64,000 nt of DNA from Phormidesmis sp. (GTDB lineage Bacteria; Cyanobacteriota; Cyanobacteriia; Leptolyngbyales; Leptolyngbyaceae): assembly GCA_965248535.1 (NCBI GenBank), contig CBDFJR010000002.1, positions 2,240,001-2,304,000 on the forward strand, written 5' to 3'. The notes under the pieces were generated by a model, which was not told the DNA's origin, searched no databases, and worked only from the letters and a program-made list of their open reading frames with translations. Positions 8,527-31,398 of this stretch are shown here, piece after piece. Position 1 is the stretch's first letter. The number at the start of each line of letters is the position of its first letter. The translations under genes and the position numbers were made by a program.

Positions 8527-8618
8527 GGATTGTGAATTAAACAACTTCGACCATTGCCAGGGTGGCTTGCCCTCACCCCCGACCCCTCTCCCAAACTGGG
8601 AGAGAAGAGGAGCAAGAG
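8527..8618. repeat. Dispersed intergenic repeat, copy 1, with a CCCTCTCCC...GGGAGAG hairpin
   Basis: gtgaattaaa-N-acttcgaccattgccagggtg..ttgccctc...gagcaagag is shared with 32860-32936. Confidence 0.8.
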
Positions 8619-8812
8619 TGCGGTTTCTCTTCTCCGAGGGGTGAGTGAGAGACAGACTGAAACGATCGGGCAAGAATTGCTATAGAATGGCAAAGGTCGG
8701 CATTCGATCCCAGTCTTCAGAACCGAACATCGCGTCAGCCCCTCAAACCCATATCTGTCTGCCAAGACTGGTGCCATCAACGGCAACAGACCGATGTTAT
8801 CTCTGGAGTTAC

Positions 8813-10057
8813 ATGTCTTTTTCAACCCTCGGTCTGTCTGATGAAATTGTTCGTGCTGTGACTGCACGAGGCTACACAGAGCCAACCCCAATTCAGATGC
8901 AGGCGATTCCTGCCGTTTTGCTAGGCAGTGATTTGCTGGCAGGGGCCCAAACAGGCACAGGCAAAACCGCTGGTTTTACACTACCGATTTTGCAACGGCT
9001 ATCGGCCAAACGTCTTGAAGATTTGCCGAGTCATCCGCCGATCCGATCGCTGATTCTCACCCCCACCCGCGAACTCGCTGCCCAAGTCGAAGAAAGCGTG
9101 CGCGACTATGGTAAGCATTTAAATCTCACCTCAATGGCAATGTTTGGCGGGGTCAACATTAACCCGCAAATTCGCCGCCTCAAAAGCCGAGTAGACATTC
9201 TCGTGGCCACACCCGGACGATTGCTCGACCATGTGCAGCAACGCACCGTTGACCTTTCGCAAGTTGAAATTCTCGTGCTAGATGAAGCCGATCGGATGCT
9301 CGATATGGGCTTTATTCGCGATATTCGCCGCATTCTCACCAAGTTGCCCCAGCGACGACAGAATTTATTGTTCTCTGCGACTTTTTCTGACGAAATCAAA
9401 GCTCTCGCTCAGACGATTCTCACCCGTCCCACCCTGATCGAGGTCGCGCCTCGGCAAGCCAACGCTGATTTGATCGCTCAAAAAGTCTATCGCGTGGCCC
9501 GCGATCGTAAGTCTGAGTTGTTGACTCACTTAATTAAGCAACACAACTGGTTTCAGGTGTTGGTGTTTACTCGCACCAAGCACGGAGCCGATCGCTTGTC
9601 TAAACAGTTGACCCAGGGCGGCATTCCGGCTTTGGCGATCCACGGCAACAAAAGTCAGTTAGTGAGAACTCGCACGCTGGCAAAGTTTAAAGACGGCACC
9701 CTACAAGTGCTGGTAGCGACCGATATCGCCGCACGGGGCATCGATATTAATGAATTGCCCCAGGTCGTCAACTTCGATCTCCCCGACGTGCCCGAAGACT
9801 ATGTGCATCGCATTGGGCGCACGGGGCGCGCAGGGTCAGCAGGCGAGGCGCTGTCGCTAGTTTGCGTCGATGAATATAAACTGCTTGCCGACATCGAAAA
9901 GCGCATGAAGCGATCGCTGCCCCAAGAAGAGGTGGCTGGTTTTGAGCCTGACCCTAACGCCAAGCCTGAACCGATTCAGCGGCGATCGCCCCGATCTCAG
10001 CCCAGAGGAGAAGTATCGTCTGGACGATCGGCTTCGGGCAACAGTCGGCGGCGTTAA
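8813..10057 (+). CDS. rhlE: DEAD-box RNA helicase (RhlE/CrhC type)
   Basis: Q motif [41 protein letters not shown] before ATG 8813. Confidence 0.9.
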
Positions 10058-21431: not shown

Positions 21432-22007
21432 TTAGCCTGCCGCTTTTTTGCGACCTCTGGTTGAAGGGGTCTTAGGAGCCGCTTTGGTGGCTGTAGCTTT
21501 GGCTTTAGTGGCTGCGGGTTTTGCCTTAGCAGTTGGCGCAGATTTTGCAGTCGTCTTGGCAGCAGATTTTGCGCTTTCGACGGTGGTGGCGCGAGGGCGT
21601 TTTGCAGTCGTGGTCTCAGCGACAGGTTCGGGCTTTGCTGCCGCTCCGTTGCCGTTTCCATTCGTCAAGGTTACGGTTTCAGGATTAAGGGTGATGCCTT
21701 GGGTTTTCCGTCTTCTCGTTTTAGGTTTGCTGCCGTCTTTTTCTTTGCGCGCAGACGAGAGGTAATATTTCAGCGTTGATGGGCTGATTTCCACTCCCTT
21801 CTCTGTTAGCATTTTTGAAACTTCTGCGTAGCTATAGCCCCGATCGAGGGCCGCTGAAATCGGTTCCTTGAGCAAATCGATCGCTTCTCGCAGTGACCAA
21901 ATTTCTTTAGGCTTTTCGGCTAGCCCTTCTAAAATTGTAGCTGCGCTGCTGATCGCACCCTTTGACACTAGCGTTGATGTGGGTGATCGCCGTTTGGTTG
22001 TTACCAT
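21432..22007 (-). CDS. Putative DNA-binding protein: HTH-like domain plus K/A/T-rich tail
   Basis: ATG 22007; RGYSYAEVSKMLTEKGVEISPSTLKYYL; tail AKSAAKTTAKSAPTAKAKPAATKAK. Confidence 0.7.
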   Translation of the reverse strand: MVTTKRRSPTSTLVSKGAISSAATILEGLAEKPKEIWSLREAIDLLKEPISAALDRGYSYAEVSKMLTEKGVEISPSTLKYYLSSARKEKDGSKPKTRRRKTQGITLNPETVTLTNGNGNGAAAKPEPVAETTTAKRPRATTVESAKSAAKTTAKSAPTAKAKPAATKAKATATKAAPKTPSTRGRKKAAG

Positions 22008-22402
22008 TTCATTATCCTGAATAATTGAGTGACGTGGACTGTTTTTTCTAGACATTTGCAGTCTAGAGGTTTTAAACCTGTGAGCTTTCAAAAAAGATGT
22101 GTGACTCGTGGAGACTGTTGATTGATTTTTCAATTCGCGAGTCGTTGACGCTGCTGTCACCATTATGACCATCGTCGTCAATTATAGAGACATTTTAGAG
22201 TTTAGAATCAAATCTTAAAAATTGTCCTGATGGTTTAGCTAAGTTGATCATTTTGATTAGTCTCAGAGTCACCTCAGCTTTATCGAGACGGCCCTCTTGA
22301 TGATCGCTAGGCATTTTTTCTCGTGATCGCCAGCGGATGATGTCTTTTCTTTAAAAGGATGATCGATGTTAGTTAGTTTGTATTCCTAAAGTTGTCAGAC
22401 TG

Positions 22403-23179
22403 CTAACCAAACCGTTGGGCGATCGTGCAAAACACGGGGGCTAGCAGCAGCGCTGGAAGAAAGGCTGCAATGCTCAAGGACGTGATTTCCAGCAGGTTTA
22501 ATCCCAATCCCATAATCATTAAGCCACCGACTCCAGACGTTAATAAGACTGAAGGGGCGTTCACGGGGTCGGGCAGCACTTGCGCTAGGAACCCGGCACA
22601 GAGCGATAGCCCGCCTTGATAAAGCAAGATTGCGATGCTAGAAAATCCGACTCCGATGCCGTAGCTGCTGGTCAGAGCGATCGCGGCTAACCCATCCATC
22701 GCAGATTTGATTGACAATAGGGCATGGTCGCCTGATAAGCCGTTGCTGAGGCTGCCTAAGATCGCCAGCGGCCCGATGCAAAATAGCAAACTAGCGGCAA
22801 CAAACCCTTCGGTAAACCTGCCGCCGCCTTTAAAGAGATCGCGGAGCCAGTCGCCAATTTTTTGTAGCTGTGTTTCGATGCGCCACCATTCACCGAGCAG
22901 ACCACCGAGGACGATCGCGAGTAGCCCAATAATCACTCCGTCAATCTGACCTGCTTTGACTTTTAATAAACTACTAGCTAGAGTTACCCCTAAAAATAGC
23001 GTTAATAAGCCCAGTCCTTGGGTGATGATGCGCTGCATCCGCAGGGGCAAGCTTCCGGTTAAGCCCAGCCCAATCAGGGTGCCTCCCAGGATGGTAGCGA
23101 CGTTGATCCAGGTGCCGTTTGTTTTGTCCCACAGGCTGAGGGCGGCAGGGTGAATCAAAAAATGAGTGATTGGAATCAA
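22403..23179 (-). CDS. DUF554-family membrane protein
   Basis: GTWINVATILGG, FVAASLLFCIGPLAILGS, KSAMDG. Confidence 0.85.
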   Translation of the reverse strand: MIPITHFLIHPAALSLWDKTNGTWINVATILGGTLIGLGLTGSLPLRMQRIITQGLGLLTLFLGVTLASSLLKVKAGQIDGVIIGLLAIVLGGLLGEWWRIETQLQKIGDWLRDLFKGGGRFTEGFVAASLLFCIGPLAILGSLSNGLSGDHALLSIKSAMDGLAAIALTSSYGIGVGFSSIAILLYQGGLSLCAGFLAQVLPDPVNAPSVLLTSGVGGLMIMGLGLNLLEITSLSIAAFLPALLLAPVFCTIAQRFG

Positions 23180-23504
23180 GGGTAGACTTCCTCAACGGTG
23201 ACTAGCTTATTTAGCGTAGTCTTTTAGTCGAGGGTTGCTTCGATCGAGGATAAATGTGGGGATGCTCGATCGCGTTCTTTACTGACCACGTTCTTTACTA
23301 AAGCGCAAATCTGGTGGGGATTATGAGCTAAGTCCTGTCGGGCACTGCCGCAAGCAATGGTCACTGAAGCGGAGTGATCCAGGCGTAGTAGAGTACTTTC
23401 TACTTCTTTATTGGGGGAGGTGGATCAGAGACGGGATTTAGAGCGAGTGGAGCGATCGTAGAACTGTGAGATCAGTTACTCTGCGATCGTGTTTAGCCTA
23501 TTGA

Positions 23505-24526
23505 TCACACTACTCTACTTGCTGGGAGATAGAGGACATGCGGTTTTCGCTGGTTGGTAGGCTGCGGATTTCCTAAAACTAGTCTCTGAAGCTCCAGCCA
23601 GGTTACAACTTTAGTGTTGCTCGGATAATAGGCTTGGACAAAGCTGATAAAGTCGTCGATCGTGCAGGGCTTCTGCGTTCCTCCCATGTAGTCTTGGTGA
23701 AACTGTTCATGAATTTCGGGAACTAGAGTAAGCAGGTTATTTTCAACATCTGCCAAATGGGGATACCCACTTTGAGAATATAGGTGATGGGCTGCTAACT
23801 TAAGTTTGTTGACACGGTTTTTCTTTTGACCTGTCACTTGACAAGTGTTGCTATCCCTCTTTTTAGCTTTGTCCATTGCTGATAGAATTCGCTTTTCACG
23901 ATTTTGAATCTCAGCTACGATGTCAGAAATCTGCGGACTAATAACTTCTCCAACGTCCCCACACCACTCTTGACGATTCTTTTTAGACTGACATTCTTTG
24001 AAGGAGTGAGACAGTTTAAGAACACCTGCCAAGGAGAAATGCAATCCTCCCTCATCGATAAAGTCTTCAAAATCTTCACCTTTAATGAGAGGATACTGGT
24101 TTTTTGCGTATGGTCAGCCATTTTGCTTAAATAGTCAGACCGTGTTTTGAAAATTGTCACCAGGTCAGATCTTGAAACAAAAAACTGTCCATTGCGCTTG
24201 ACTAGTGACGAGGAGTTATCAAGAATGTGCTTCTTAATAAATGCTTTACTAATTTCTCGTTTAGTATGTGTAAACCATTCTGTCAGACGTTGCCAAAACG
24301 TTTGCTTTTGTGTTGCTTCAAGATAGCGAGCAATGGTATAAGCGCCTGATGAGGTATATTCTCGTAACCCAGTTGTTTTATTAACAACTTTATAATCCTT
24401 GCTTTCAGTCAATTCCCACTCATCATCTGGAACTGAGTCAAAGAATTTCTCGGTTTCAATCAGTTCCTGAGTGGTAATTTTTAGTGTTTTAACCAACTCT
24501 TGGGAAGTAATATACAGTTCTGCCAT
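23505..24526 (-). pseudogene. ORF6N-like DNA-binding + HNH endonuclease protein, one frameshift near 24100
   Basis: Two overlapping ORFs join at an A6 run; C-terminus has RDSNTCQVTG, LAAHHL and NNLLTL..IHEQFH. Confidence 0.65.
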
Positions 24527-24528
24527 TT

Positions 24529-25179
24529 CTAAAACCTTTCAGTAAGACTTTTGTAAAACACGTTCAGACGAGCGAAGACATCAGCATTTCCTGTGTTGGG
24601 AATATCTGGGTGATAAATTTGGCTGAGTTTACGATACGCAGACTTAATATCCTCTGAAGTGGCTGTCTGAGGGTCTAGTCCAAACGCTTTCCATACCAAG
24701 TCATACTTAAAGATGTTGATGCCATTGATGCAGCCATAGCCAGTCTCATTTTCTTCTTCTGGCAAAATACTGATAAACTTGCGATATAGCTTTTCCCAGC
24801 TATCTTTCTTGCTAAATTCAAGGTTTCCCATACCGCTTGTTGCCATTGCAAAAGAGCCAGATTTTTTTAATTCTTTGACATCTTTAACATTAAAATAATT
24901 AAGAACGCAGTTTTTGATCTGAGCCAAGGTTAAAGGCTTGACTTTTACAGTCTTGACAACTTTGGGTGACTTAGGTTTAGGATCTTTCTTCTTATAATTC
25001 TCAATGACGAACTGAGTAAATTCTTCGATAGTCGCTGTGTCTATGCCTTGGGCTTCTGCAAGCCGAGAAATCTCATTTTGAATCAGTTGATTGAGTATGA
25101 TCTTAGACATTGGTTTTGCAACAGTTGAAGTTTCAGTACTCTGTTGTACATCCTTTGAACGAGTTTTGGTAGGGGTCAT
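24529..25179 (-). CDS. Protein with C-terminal J-domain
   Basis: FGLDPQTATSEDIKSAYRKLSQIYHPD..FARLN; GAGG before ATG 25179; stop 2 nt before the next ATG. Confidence 0.85.
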   Translation of the reverse strand: MTPTKTRSKDVQQSTETSTVAKPMSKIILNQLIQNEISRLAEAQGIDTATIEEFTQFVIENYKKKDPKPKSPKVVKTVKVKPLTLAQIKNCVLNYFNVKDVKELKKSGSFAMATSGMGNLEFSKKDSWEKLYRKFISILPEEENETGYGCINGINIFKYDLVWKAFGLDPQTATSEDIKSAYRKLSQIYHPDIPNTGNADVFARLNVFYKSLTERF

Positions 25180-25491
25180 CTTCCAGATCCTCAATAACGT
25201 CGATCGCAGCCACTTTCCCGCGTCAAATCTTGTCGTAAGCAAATCTGACTGTGCGTTCAAATCACTGAGATGTCCTCCGTGATTGAAATCATAGTTCTAG
25301 TCTAAGTTCCTTATAAAGGTCTGATTTCAGTAAAATCACTGGGATTTTGTCAGAAATCATAAAGTCTCTACGAGTCAATTGAGAGAAGGGTGAAGACTTG
25401 CCAACGTAGCCCCACGAAAACTCAGCGAATATTCCGATCGTGGTAACCCCAACGTACCCTGACCCAAGTGTTTAATAACAGTTTTGAACGT

Positions 25492-27234
25492 CTAAAATCC
25501 GGCAGCGACACCCTCACCTCTGGGGTCGGCAGCCCCTTCTAAAGAGCCATCGGGCAGAACCACGATCGCGTTAGCATTTCCCCAACTGGAGCGTTCTTGA
25601 ATCTGATGTCCGCGACGTTTTAGATCAGCGATCGTTAGTGTGTCTAATCCCCATGATTCAACATTGAGGCGATCGGGCAGCCATTGATGATGAATTCTTG
25701 GAGCCGCGATCGCTCTGCGAACATCCATGTCGTAGACCAATATGTTTAAGATAATTTGCAACACTGTTGTAATGATTGTGCTGCCACCTGGTGACCCCAC
25801 GGCTAGTCGCAGATGACCGTTTTCGGTGACGATCGTCGGAGTCATGCTCGATAGCGGAATTTTGCTGGGCGCGATCGCGTTAGCTGTTCCGCCCACGAGT
25901 CCAAAGGCGTTGGGGGTGTTGGGCGCGATCGCAAAGTCGTCCATTTCGTTGTTCAAGACGATGCCCGTGCCTTTAGCGACAACTCCGGCCCCAAAACTGA
26001 GATTGACTGTGAAGGTCAGGCTGACGGCATTGCGATCGCGATCTACCACCGTGAGGTGGCTGGTTTCGACCGATTCTTTAGTCAGACGTTGCAGCACTGC
26101 GGGGTCAACGGCTTTTACTTGACTAGAGGGAGTTGCTTTTTGAGGATTGATTTCCTGTCGTCGTTTTTGCGCGTAGGCGGGGCTGATTAATGCCTTAACC
26201 GGAACTTTGACAAAATCAGGATCACCGAGATAAGTGGCCCGATCGGCGTAGGCAATTCGCATCGACTCGGCTAATAAATGTAGGGCATCGGGACTATGCC
26301 AGCCCATTGTTGTTAAGTCTGTGTCGCCAATCATGTTGAGAATTTGCAGCAGATGAACGCCTCCCGAAGACGGTGGCGGCATTGAGCAAACTCGTGCTTT
26401 ACGAAAGTCGCCACAGACTGGGGTGCGCCAGGTTGGGCGATATTGCTGGAGATCTTTTTTGGTGATCAATCCATGATTAGCTGCCATATCGTTGGCGATC
26501 GCTGCTGCAATCGTTCCTGTATAAAAATCTTGAGGATTTTGAGACACCGATCGTAACGTTGCAGCCAATTCTGACTGAACTAACTGATCGCCCACTTGAT
26601 AAATCTTGCCACTGTGAGTGAAAATTTTCCGGGCATCAGGATTTTTAAGTAGCGTTTGTTGTTCTTCTTCTGTAGCGTTCACAAACCGCCAGCTAACCGG
26701 AAATCCCTTTTCTGCTAACTGAATCGCTGGAGCAATCACAGTTTTCCACGGTAAGTGTCCATATTGACGATGGACTTCATAGAGTCCGGCGATCGTGCCC
26801 GGTGTTGCCACCGCTAAATATCCATTTGTACTCGCGTTGGGGCGCACATTCCCCTGTCTGTCCAGATACATGGTTTTTGTAGCGTTAAGCGGCGCACGTT
26901 CCCGAAAATCTAAGGCCTTTGTCTCGTTGTTTTTCGCCTGATACATCAGCAAAAATCCACCGCCACCCAGTCCGGCTGAAAATGGCTCGACCACCGAGAT
27001 GGCAAAGGTTGTGGCAACGGCAGCATCTACGGCATTGCCGCCCTGTTGCAGCATTGACAGTCCCGCTTGAGTCGCGAGGGGGTTGGCAGACGCGACCATG
27101 CCTTGATTAGCCCGATCGAGCATAGCAGTCGGGGGAGAAACCGCGATCGCAGGCAGCGATCCACCCATTCCTACAGCAATGATCACGCCGAGAGCAAAAA
27201 TTTTGTGACTCTGAAATGCGCCAATGTAATTCAT
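25492..27234 (-). CDS. ggt: Gamma-glutamyltransferase
   Basis: GGNAVDAAVA, DFRERAP, ETSHLTVVD, LNNEMDDF, SSMTP, GSPGG; ATG 27234 overlaps the cbiB stop (ATGA). Confidence 0.95.
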   Translation of the reverse strand: MNYIGAFQSHKIFALGVIIAVGMGGSLPAIAVSPPTAMLDRANQGMVASANPLATQAGLSMLQQGGNAVDAAVATTFAISVVEPFSAGLGGGGFLLMYQAKNNETKALDFRERAPLNATKTMYLDRQGNVRPNASTNGYLAVATPGTIAGLYEVHRQYGHLPWKTVIAPAIQLAEKGFPVSWRFVNATEEEQQTLLKNPDARKIFTHSGKIYQVGDQLVQSELAATLRSVSQNPQDFYTGTIAAAIANDMAANHGLITKKDLQQYRPTWRTPVCGDFRKARVCSMPPPSSGGVHLLQILNMIGDTDLTTMGWHSPDALHLLAESMRIAYADRATYLGDPDFVKVPVKALISPAYAQKRRQEINPQKATPSSQVKAVDPAVLQRLTKESVETSHLTVVDRDRNAVSLTFTVNLSFGAGVVAKGTGIVLNNEMDDFAIAPNTPNAFGLVGGTANAIAPSKIPLSSMTPTIVTENGHLRLAVGSPGGSTIITTVLQIILNILVYDMDVRRAIAAPRIHHQWLPDRLNVESWGLDTLTIADLKRRGHQIQERSSWGNANAIVVLPDGSLEGAADPRGEGVAAGF

Positions 27235-28214
27235 GATGCTCCTAAAATGGTTAATCCTGATAGTGCGATCGCTAACCAACTCAAAAAACTGATGCGCGTC
27301 AACTGCAACGCTTGCCGAATAATTTCTGGCGTAATCGATCGAGTTGGCTCACCCAAAAACGGCTTATGTTTTTCTATGCCGTGATACCAATTAGTGCCGC
27401 CGACTTGCACCCCCAACACAGCCGCATAAGCGCATTCGCTCCAACCGGAGTTTGGGCTAGAATCTTTGGGCCCATCTCGCTGGCAGAGCCGCCAAACTTC
27501 ACGAGGTTTTCTAGACAACAACGATAGAGTCAACACCGATAATCGACACGGCAACCAAGTCAAAAAATCATCAGTTTTAGCGCTACACCACCCAATATCT
27601 TGATAAGGAGCCGTCTGATATCCCACCATTGAATCTAAAGTGCTAGCGGCTTTATAAGCCAACGCGAACGGCACACTGCCAATCATGGGTAGAAATGCAC
27701 CGATTAATGCATAGAACAACGGAGCCATAACTCCATCGATAGCATTTTCGGTAACCGTTTCTAACACGGCTCGAAGAATCTCTGATTCACTCAAGTTTTC
27801 GGTATCGCGTCCCACATACAGACTTAGCTGCGATCGCGCCTGATCCAGATCTCCTTCTTTTAACGGGCGCAACACAGCTTCAGCCGCCGATCGTAAGCTT
27901 CGTCCTGCAAAACAACTGGCTAACAAAATGCTGGCAGTGATTAGCCCCAACGCTGGATGGAATGCTTTTGAGAATGCGACGATTCCCCATCCGATAACAC
28001 CACTTCCAACCACAATGAGAACAGTTAGAATCACACCTATAAATCGCAATAATGCTGGCTGCTTGAATGTTTTTAAAGCGGATTTAGAATAGCCATCAAT
28101 CGCCCAGCCCATGATCTGAACCGGATGCAGCCATCCCCACGGGTCGCCAATTCCATAATCGAGGAGAGCAGCGATCGCTAAAACACTGATTTCCCATCTC
28201 TCTCTAGACCACAA
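27231..28214 (-). CDS. cbiB: Adenosylcobinamide-phosphate synthase CbiB/CobD
   Basis: GDPWGWLHPV, VGRDT, ENAIDGVMAPLF, TLDSMVGY, SPNSGWSE; start uncertain (TTG 28214). Confidence 0.92.
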   Translation of the reverse strand: MWSRERWEISVLAIAALLDYGIGDPWGWLHPVQIMGWAIDGYSKSALKTFKQPALLRFIGVILTVLIVVGSGVIGWGIVAFSKAFHPALGLITASILLASCFAGRSLRSAAEAVLRPLKEGDLDQARSQLSLYVGRDTENLSESEILRAVLETVTENAIDGVMAPLFYALIGAFLPMIGSVPFALAYKAASTLDSMVGYQTAPYQDIGWCSAKTDDFLTWLPCRLSVLTLSLLSRKPREVWRLCQRDGPKDSSPNSGWSECAYAAVLGVQVGGTNWYHGIEKHKPFLGEPTRSITPEIIRQALQLTRISFLSWLAIALSGLTILGAS

Positions 28215-30408: not shown

Positions 30409-31398
30409 GTGGCTGCAACTGACTTTAAAGACTACTACGCACTGCTGGGCGTGACCAAGACTGCTAGCGCCGACGAAATTAAAAAAGCCTTTCGCAAATT
30501 GGCCCGCCAATATCACCCAGACATGAATCCGGGTGACAAGGCAGCAGAGGCGCGGTTTAAAGAAATCAACGAAGCCTATGAAGTCCTGTCTGACAGCGAT
30601 AAGCGGCAAAAATATGACCAATTTGGGCAATATTGGCAGCAGGCAGACCGAGCCGGGGCCCGAGGCGGACGATCGCCCTTTAGCACCAACGCCAGCCCTG
30701 GTTTTGATGAATTTGAATTTGGACGCTACGGCAGCTTTGATGAATTTGTCAATGATCTATTGGGGCGAGTCGGCACGGGCTATGGTCGCAGCGCTGACCC
30801 CTTTAGCGGTTATCGCACTCCAACGGGGGGTGGCTATGACGGCGCAGGCGCAGGCGTAAATTTGGATGTTGAAGCTCCGATCAAGCTGACATTTTCAGAA
30901 GCGTTTAATGGCGTGCAGAAGAAGTTAGGCATCGGCAGTGACACGATCGACGTGAGAATTCCGGCAGGGGCAAAGCCGGGCAGTCGCATTCGCATCAGAG
31001 GCAAGGGACGATTTAGCCCTCACTACACCAGTCAGCGCGGCGATCTCTATTTAATGGTCGAGTTGCTGCCCCATGCTTTCTTTCAGTTTGAGGGCGATAA
31101 CTTAGTGGGTGAGATCGCGATCGCGCCCGATGAAGCAGTTTTGGGGGGACAAATCGAGGTGCCTACCCCCGATGGCATGGTGATGGTCAACGTTCCGGCG
31201 GGGGTGCGATCGGGCCAAGCGCTGCGACTGCGCGGCAAAGGTTGGAAAAGTCCCAAAGGCGATCGGGGCGATCTGATGCTCAAACTTCTGATTGTGCCGC
31301 CTAAAGAATTAAGCGCGATCGAGCGAGAATCCTATGAGCAGATTCGCGATCATCGCAGTTACGATCCCCGCAGCAATCTCAAAGGCATCAAACTGTGA
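30409..31398 (+). CDS. DnaJ class B co-chaperone (CbpA-like)
   Basis: N-terminal J-domain with HPD, G/F region, C-terminal DnaJ domain, no Zn finger. Confidence 0.92.

Follow-up and report, generated by a model that had tools for sequence, protein, structure and literature searches.

The window analyzed here, a 64,000-nt stretch of a Phormidesmis sp. genome, carries on its minus strand two coupled genes that encode a J-domain protein (gene 1) and a predicted winged-helix/HNH nuclease (gene 2) and that make up an apparently undescribed two-gene family. We propose, with a probability of roughly 40%, that the pair is a DnaK-gated nuclease with a role in conflict, either as an abortive-infection defense system or as an addiction-type toxin/immunity pair. 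The initial annotation of this DNA had noted two tightly coupled genes joined by TAG-AA-ATG, and the junction is confirmed at 24531-24524, where coordinates, as throughout, are those of the whole window. Its description of the locus holds up and its interpretation is borne out in part, with corrections to the island reading and to the frameshift. The parts of the pair are laid out as follows.

24529..25179, minus strand: gene 1, encoding a 216-amino-acid (aa) J-domain protein (placed from the open reading frame [ORF] list, Pfam, the start of its homologues and the model)
24532..24744, minus strand: J domain, residues ~146-216, with the His-Pro-Asp (HPD) motif at 24612-24604
24524..24531, minus strand: junction TAG-AA-ATG, comprising the gene-1 stop TAG (24531-24529), a 2-nt spacer AA and the gene-2 ATG (24526-24524)
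23505..24526, minus strand: gene 2, orthologue of 340-aa proteins, in two frames in the window, with one base missing
24302..24526, minus strand: first predicted MerR-like winged-helix domain, residues 1-75 (VIA-align)
24100..24105, minus strand: A6 run and site of the frameshift, across which homologues read HTQKTQYP
23988..24211, minus strand: second predicted winged-helix domain, residues ~106-180, homologous to the first and bearing most of the predicted contact surface for the J protein
23568..23855, minus strand: predicted HNH nuclease domain, residues ~225-320, with C229 at 23843-23841 and H277 at 23699-23697

The coupling of the two genes extends well beyond the window, and a survey of their pairing found that they co-occur wherever either was found, with the same 2-nt junction in most loci. 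On genome contigs, the J gene lies directly upstream in all 19 loci where gene 2 is matched in full or almost in full; a twentieth gene-2 locus (L020) holds a match to the HNH domain only. In the search with the J protein, 78 loci were fetched, and 81 J loci were examined, 79 of which reach the J C terminus. An intact partner of at least 300 aa directly follows the J gene in 61 of these 79 loci, mostly after a gap of 2 nt, and 17 more retain partner homology that is cut by a contig end, is frameshifted or spread over several frames, or has decayed to remnants. The remaining locus (L081) shows no partner homology, and its J gene carries a stop. In none of the 79 loci is a J gene of this family followed by some other, unrelated intact gene. 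No conserved third gene accompanies the pair (the next ORF cluster, present in 11 of ~81 loci, is a sensor-type protein), and no fusion of J protein and nuclease was found among 1.84 billion representatives (87 clusters at E < 1e-30, longest full-length match 468 aa). Weaker profile matches of gene 2 cover the HNH domain only and occur in other architectures. The two genes are a strictly linked, self-contained two-gene operon.

Gene 1 has the C-terminal J domain with an intact HPD that was read from it initially. Pfam model PF00226 (DnaJ) matches residues 197 to 240 of the 243-aa ORF with 32.9 bits against a cut-off of 27.8 (E = 6.8e-8), and the motif itself, H190-P191-D192, shows no variation across the 41 family members aligned. 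The listed ORF (24529..25260) has a possible TTG start at 25260; homologues begin at the ATG at 25179. In a VIA-align fold comparison, residues 141 to 216 of the model matched Tim14 (2guz_A) with a Z score of 8.2 (root-mean-square deviation [rmsd] 2.7, 65 residues aligned), and 20 further J domains matched at Z 5 to 7.5. The family profile also matches 45 J-domain sequences in the PDB at E ≤ 0.01. Helix IV is missing (the Pfam match spans positions 9 to 54 of 63), leaving a three-helix J domain. Ahead of it, the protein comprises a disordered Lys-rich N terminus, a helical hairpin (residues 30 to 62), a Lys/Pro-rich linker and a conserved middle domain (residues ~80 to 145); the model has a predicted local distance difference test score (pLDDT) of 79, with residues 1 to 24 and 65 to 77 disordered. 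A word-indexed search matched 342 proteins to the J protein, and its N-terminal and middle parts match family members only, with all but two of 111 matches carrying a Pfam J-domain call. The middle domain is covered by no Pfam or NCBIfam family, and a scan of NCBIfam returned only generic DnaJ fragments far below their cut-offs and a weak match to MobB_relaxase. Gene 1 should be read as encoding a dedicated J-domain protein, for which DnaK recruitment is predicted from the J domain.

Gene 2 is predicted to encode a DNA-targeting enzyme built of two homologous MerR-like winged helices, a long helix and an HNH nuclease domain. The HNH-like C terminus noticed at first sight finds support on several lines. 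The motifs CQVTG, AAHHLY, NNLLTL and IHEQFH all lie in the second frame of the gene, and seven PHROG HNH families match this half of the protein at E values of 1e-6 to 1e-3. The second half finds 88 homologous proteins, nearly all of 336 to 349 aa. The family alignment contains 12 invariant columns and 19 more that are nearly invariant; residues C229, H247, H248, Y255, N264, F276 and H277 do not vary across its 36 sequences, and C229, H247, H248, N264 and H277 are all kept in the window copy. We infer the catalytic roles of individual HNH residues from motif order. Structural modeling used P0002, an intact orthologue with 84% identity in the second half (mean pLDDT 88.6). In a VIA-align comparison against 48,161 chains, its residues ~200 to 320 resembled EcoKMcrA (Z = 5.9, rmsd 6.3, 94 aligned), TagI (Z = 5.6, rmsd 3.6, 93 aligned), T5 SciA (Z = 5.5, rmsd 3.7, 91 aligned) and the HNH domain of SaCas9 (Z = 5.2).

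Upstream of the nuclease domain, the initial annotation had described two similar segments resembling ORF6N or antirepressor DNA-binding domains. The repeat is real (hhalign of residues 4 to 73 with 115 to 180, probability 89%, E = 2.3e-6, 66 columns). The likeness to ORF6N found no profile match, since ORF6N and related Pfam families gave nothing at E ≤ 0.1 for either half of gene 2 and nothing at E ≤ 0.05 among 36 family members; a match to the PHROG anti-repressor family phrog_2379 reached E = 0.016. By fold, both segments are predicted to be MerR-like winged helices. Residues 1 to 75 match the ParA2 N terminus (Z = 6.6), pSK1 Par (6.2), CvkR (6.0), RacA (5.9) and many MerR regulators (4.4 to 5.6), and residues ~98 to 180 match Dachshund (6.0), a Ski-like domain (5.9), DdrC-N (5.0) and TorI (4.7). 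Pfam gave no MerR match for these N-terminal domains, and no Pfam or NCBIfam family describes the nuclease protein as a whole. A PDB search gave no sequence-level match to any solved structure, the gene-2 profile returning only spurious hits (serpin, interferon). Foldseek searches with the nuclease model yielded nothing at E ≤ 0.001 against the PDB or against BFVD, the latter giving only weak rows for phage HNH, NinG and regulator proteins.

Complex modeling supports binding between the J protein and the nuclease in an arrangement that would leave the HPD free. The natural pair of one relative (P0094 with P0002) was predicted together, each protein with its own supplied alignment, beside three controls. 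The interaction prediction score from aligned errors (ipSAE) was 0.53, 0.75 and 0.61 (median 0.61) for the pair, and the best control scored 0.00; of 157 solved complexes, 116 pass the mark used for this tool, as do 2 of 215 mismatched pairs, counts that are only rough when alignments are supplied. The runs share at least 92% of their contacts, with a partner pLDDT of at least 85. On the J protein, the modeled interface takes in residues 107 to 116, where the middle domain is most conserved, together with 135, 137, 160 to 163, 170 to 171 and the C-terminal tail (207 to 216). On the partner, it comprises residues 113 to 119, 133 to 153, 162 to 170 and 193 to 198, which belong to the second winged helix and the long helix. 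The HPD (residues 190 to 192) and partner residues 1 to 75 fall outside it. In all rows compared, the J C-terminal tail covaries with the partner subfamily, the combinations of tail and partner being FYKSLTE-F/MAE-YITS, MYKSISAEA/MAKKTSGFTIRE, MYKSITTEIK/Microcystis type and MYKSI-AG-/M-FDR-FYIEE.

In the window itself, gene 2 is split between two frames, the first at 23915..24526 and the second at 23505..24044 (open from 24113). Aligned with intact 340-aa homologues, it reads in the first frame to HTQKT and in the second from QYPLIKG, so that, judged against these homologues, the A6 run (24100-24105) is one base short. Logan contigs from three public runs were aligned to the stretch. Run X1 contains 0.96 of the sampled words. 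One of its contigs, 785 bases long, differs from the window only by an extra T after plus-strand position 24099, which gives a seventh sense-strand A and restores the frame. In X2, a second sample with the same organism label, an extra A after plus-strand position 24098 likewise restores it. Run X1 may be the sample behind the genome assembly and is thus not independent of the strain, yet it is a separate assembly of reads. Because the contigs from both runs carry an extra base that restores the frame, the frameshift is very probably a homopolymer error of the assembly, and the apparent pseudogene in the window is probably its product. Gene 2 is most likely intact in this genome, as read from these contigs.

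The opposite reading is that the frameshift is real, that the copy is a decaying pseudogene whose neighbors have been deleted, and that the intact paralogous pair elsewhere in the genome performs whatever function the family has. The one-base loss does stand in the window sequence, the window is without the 80-aa helix-turn-helix (HTH), 153-aa and DUF3611 genes that relatives have at this position, and decayed copies are common in other genomes. We nevertheless consider this reading very unlikely. Besides the in-frame contigs from both samples, no further stop or indel is present in window gene 2, and all its catalytic-type residues are kept. The genome assembly consists of five contigs, two of them ~2.45 Mb long, and assemblies with megabase contigs commonly miscount homopolymers. 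A real or phase-variable lesion at the A6 run is possible because Logan contigs drop minor variants.

The pair is an accessory module. Within the family, it occurs in 25 of 61 genomes (23 of 51 of good quality) and in 14 of 27 genera, with individual genera ranging from 0/4 to 3/3. In a sample of the phylum, at least 33 of 401 genomes and at least 25 of 152 genera carry it; this count is a lower bound, five candidates per genome having been scored. The pair is also syntenic across several genera. All gene-2 homologues with a source name are cyanobacterial, so the module is, judging from these names, found only in cyanobacteria, where its hosts include Microcystis, Planktothrix and Dolichospermum, which are among the bloom-forming genera. 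One locus titled as a Chitinophaga metagenome-assembled genome (L092) holds a typical pair of this cyanobacterial family between flanks of 63% guanine-plus-cytosine (GC) content and may be mis-binned. Copies with stops, frameshifts or remnants are common; in one genome of the same family (G425:C1:2898108-2901792), the partner gene lies in two pieces ~2.6 kb apart, which suggests a splitting insertion. A genome may also hold several pairs. The window genome has, on its other large contig, a second, intact paralogous pair of another subtype (G000:C5:94716-96304, loci L097 and L101), with a 188-aa J protein, a 339-aa partner, a 2-nt gap and a GC content of 40.6% against 48.3% in its flanks, and one Prochloron and one Spirulina assembly have three loci each. 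A given subtype is present in at most one copy per genome.

The pair in the window lies between DUF554 (22403..23179, E = 3e-67) and the gamma-glutamyltranspeptidase gene ggt (25492..27279, E = 2e-184), flanks that the initial annotation had named and that Pfam confirms. Within the same genus, the DUF554-ggt interval holds the pair in G401, G402 and G403 and lacks it in G405, G406 and G407. The sequence of G407 joins seamlessly at 2730/2732 where G402 has 1,973 bp spanning both genes of the pair and ~220 bp upstream of them; this junction shows no duplication or repeat, and the boundary of the segment maps to ~25462-25492 in the window. Across loci, the pair adjoins DUF554 in 6 of 19 loci from several genera and DUF3611 in three (L021, L025 and L118). 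Two features of the surrounding interval complete the description.

25180..25491, minus strand: upstream non-coding region of the operon, within the 2-kb present/absent segment, with one promoter-like site (25317-25288) and repeated GTGATTT/AAATCAC motifs
23372..23489, strand unassigned: remnant comprising the end of the 80-aa HTH gene and the start of the 153-aa gene (blastn, 71 to 75% identity to L115-L119)

The GC content of the pair is 40.3%, against a genome mean of 50.4% (standard deviation 2.9), which places it within the lowest 0.31% of 25,102 windows of the same length, and the HIP1 octamer GCGATCGC is absent from 23000-25700, compared with 1.02 per kb genome-wide. Sliding GC and HIP1 counts thus bear out the AT-richness and the lack of HIP1 sites reported at the outset, although the HIP1 gap taken alone is not significant because only ~2 sites were expected. 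Across loci, the pair is AT-richer than its flanks in 51 of 52, by a mean of 8.4 points. Given this and the DUF554 synteny across genera, we take the empty sites to be probable losses and regard low GC as a lasting trait of the module and not the mark of a recent arrival; long residence with repeated loss would fit better than a recent island. The AT-rich island of the initial annotation is accordingly retained as AT-rich and accessory, and the horizontal acquisition attached to it is not supported as a recent event. Nor is proximity to defense islands shown, the neighbors being mostly housekeeping genes; ~16 of 133 neighboring ORFs, in 13 of 34 loci, encode transposase, PIN, Uma2, restriction-modification, Fic, HNH, T5orf172 or similar proteins, a proportion for which no background rate was computed.

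Promoter and terminator scans of the locus gave counts not above those of shuffled sequences (for promoter-like sites in the upstream region, 3 against 3.7). A look-up of public runs for the stretch turned up no RNA data set. Upstream of the J gene, at 25259-25361, GTGATTT/AAATCAC and GAAATCATA motifs are repeated. Both kinds of motif are shared with the nearest relative (L023/L118) and were not seen in more distant loci; they may represent either an operator or mere local repeats. A conserved operator was sought across 69 upstream regions and rejected, no 7-mer being enriched beyond A/T-rich words. The DUF554-ggt interval as a whole varies within the genus (window 23180-23504 and 25261-25491; L115-L119), where the genes for the 80-aa HTH protein, a 153-aa Asp_protease_2-like protein and the DUF3611 membrane protein come and go; of the first two, the window keeps only the 118-nt remnant listed above. 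In L116 (G406:C12, 3762-5499), ggt is present as two ORFs of 443 and 161 aa, which may reflect a frameshift or an assembly error. A 249-aa ORF at 21432-22181 (minus strand), with an Ala/Lys/Thr/Pro-rich tail and no Pfam family, accompanies DUF554 in 6 related loci. Elsewhere in the window, a 333-aa open frame holds an unrelated J-domain match at ~30454-30591 (plus strand; family-profile E = 4.5e-4, J-domain part only).

How might such a pair work? We propose that the middle domain and C-terminal tail of the J protein would grip the nuclease, leaving the HPD loop free to engage DnaK. The folding, oligomeric state or release of the nuclease would then depend on chaperone availability. A diversion of DnaK, such as a burst of phage proteins or proteotoxic stress might cause, would alter how the nuclease is controlled, and DNA would be cut. 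In a more elaborate version, which we regard as rather unlikely, the pair would be an immune guard of proteostasis: a phage that floods or hijacks DnaK would free the HNH nuclease to destroy DNA in an abortive infection, paralogous pairs would be insulated from one another by their matching J-tail and partner surfaces, and orphan J homologues in phages would act as counter-defense decoys that recapture the nuclease. Such orphans may be represented by 2 of the 23 IMG/VR loci that were fetched with the J alignment (L120:7590-8399 and L121:7131-8516), which are true relatives of the middle-plus-J module with the HPD kept; both adjoin terminase genes, and neither has a nuclease partner. In L120, a second J-like ORF (8576-9718) lies right after the first. 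A scan of IMG/VR with the nuclease alignment found no relative.

Several observations weigh against a DnaK-gated nuclease with a conflict role. The ipSAE is the model's own confidence, not a measurement, and the covariation of tail and partner could come from co-inheritance alone. The fold matches of the nuclease and winged-helix domains are middling, with Z under 7, and the Pfam HNH_2 match to gene 2 scores 18.0 bits, below its cut-off of 21 (among 36 family members, 7 match at E ≤ 0.05). PADLOC-DB 2.0.0 (2023 library) has no family that matches the J protein; for gene 2, the N-terminal half matches none either and the C-terminal half matches REase_II only (E = 0.0019, 15.1 bits). The direction of control, that is, whether the chaperone restrains or activates the nuclease, is not readable from sequence. 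Neighboring genes are mostly metabolic or other housekeeping genes, placement beside DUF554 across several genera appears more stable than that of typical defense islands, and searches of 50,697 phage and 72,556 plasmid records turned up no homologue of gene 2.

These last points would suit a different role, that of a lineage-specific factor for DNA transactions, in which the winged-helix/HNH protein would nick or cut chromosomal sites for repair, recombination or regulation and the J protein would be its dedicated folding or assembly helper, much as DnaJ and DnaK remodel replication initiators. The stable position beside DUF554, the housekeeping surroundings and the absence from phage and plasmid collections are joined here by the strong purifying conservation seen in the invariant and nearly invariant columns and by fold matches that include DdrC-N and the DNA-binding domains of partition proteins. 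We consider this role unlikely. Most genomes lack the pair, also inside single genera (some stand at 0/4, others at 3/4), its decay is frequent, several distinct paralogous pairs are possible in one genome, and its AT-richness persists at nearly every locus; patchiness, decay, paralogy and composition of this kind fit dispensable conflict-type genes better than a DNA-transaction factor. Distinctly unlikely, in our judgment, is a selfish homing-type endonuclease cassette, in which the nuclease would cut an empty site, the 2-kb segment would be copied in by repair, and the J protein would aid folding or limit toxicity. Such a cassette would account for the seamless presence/absence junction, for a 1,973-bp segment that contains exactly the two genes and their upstream region, and for the insertion of an AT-rich pair singly between housekeeping genes, and the combination of DNA-binding modules with an HNH domain resembles phage homing endonucleases (the Atlas and BFVD neighbors are phage HNH proteins, all weak). 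It is at odds with the lack of a target-site duplication or repeat at the junction, with genomic contexts that differ between lineages, with the limit of one copy of a given subtype per genome, and with a DUF554-side site that is common to several genera, so that the empty sites look like deletions. Moreover, we know of no homing endonuclease that needs a J-domain partner.

Finally, the roles could be reversed as in CbpA/CbpM, so that the downstream protein would mainly bind the J co-chaperone and switch off its activity, the HNH domain being secondary. The gene order, J gene first and MerR-like gene second, is that of cbpA-cbpM, and CbpM itself (3ucs_B) is among the fold matches of residues 1 to 75 (Z = 5.2, rmsd 2.9, 61 aligned). 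This Z score is tied with those of many MerR-family rows. The modeled interface lies on the second winged helix and the long helix instead of on residues 1 to 75 and leaves the HPD loop free, so a CbpM-like role of the first winged helix is not supported by the model, and the invariance of the HNH residues implies that the nuclease is under selection. We therefore hold this arrangement to be most improbable.

If the pair is indeed a DnaK-gated nuclease, it would connect to the Hsp70 system of its host through a J-domain adaptor encoded within the module itself, and the use of chaperone status to switch DNA cleavage could be tested in a compact setting. The recent idea of immune proteins that detect infection via DnaJ/DnaK would gain a cyanobacterial branch, and roles would be found for two protein families without a Pfam family of their own, namely the whole nuclease protein and the J middle domain. 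Its bloom-forming hosts provide a setting in which phage-host conflict is ecologically relevant.

Full-text literature searches found no description of a J-domain/HNH pair, and the remark in the initial annotation that it knew of no named system with this pairing agrees with PADLOC, Pfam and literature searches, which name none. The nearest known systems each share part of its design. With toxin-antitoxin-chaperone (TAC) modules and type II toxin-antitoxin pairs, it has in common a small, self-contained, coupled operon in which the product of the first gene is predicted to bind the enzyme encoded by the second, a link to chaperones, a patchy spread, several paralogues per genome and frequent decay. 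TAC modules carry their own SecB-like chaperone as a third gene. In contrast, no third gene recurs beside the pair, the J domain of which would instead borrow the host DnaK, and its effector is a 340-aa HNH protein with two predicted DNA-binding domains and not a small toxin. In Escherichia coli, CbpM binds the J domain of CbpA itself and inhibits the co-chaperone. Like CbpA/CbpM (PDB 3UCS), the pair has a J-protein gene followed by a gene for a protein with a MerR-like fold, and binding of the partner is predicted; here, the modeled interface lies on the partner's second winged helix with the HPD free, and the partner also carries a nuclease domain.

Another parallel is bNACHT25 of E. coli, an anti-phage protein resembling nucleotide-binding leucine-rich repeat receptors (NLR-like) that is reported to need host DnaJ to sense phage (PMC12169576). 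Both would tie a nuclease-type immune output to DnaJ/DnaK through indirect sensing of infection. bNACHT25 uses the general DnaJ of the host and a NACHT ATPase, whereas the pair has its own J protein and no nucleoside triphosphatase (PMC12169576). Among nucleases, EcoKMcrA, TagI, VcaM4I and T5 SciA likewise place a C-terminal HNH domain after DNA-binding modules and work without a methyltransferase; unlike in these enzymes, the reader domains of the pair are predicted MerR-like winged helices and the J-domain partner is obligatory. The pair thus differs from each of its nearest known systems in a defining feature.

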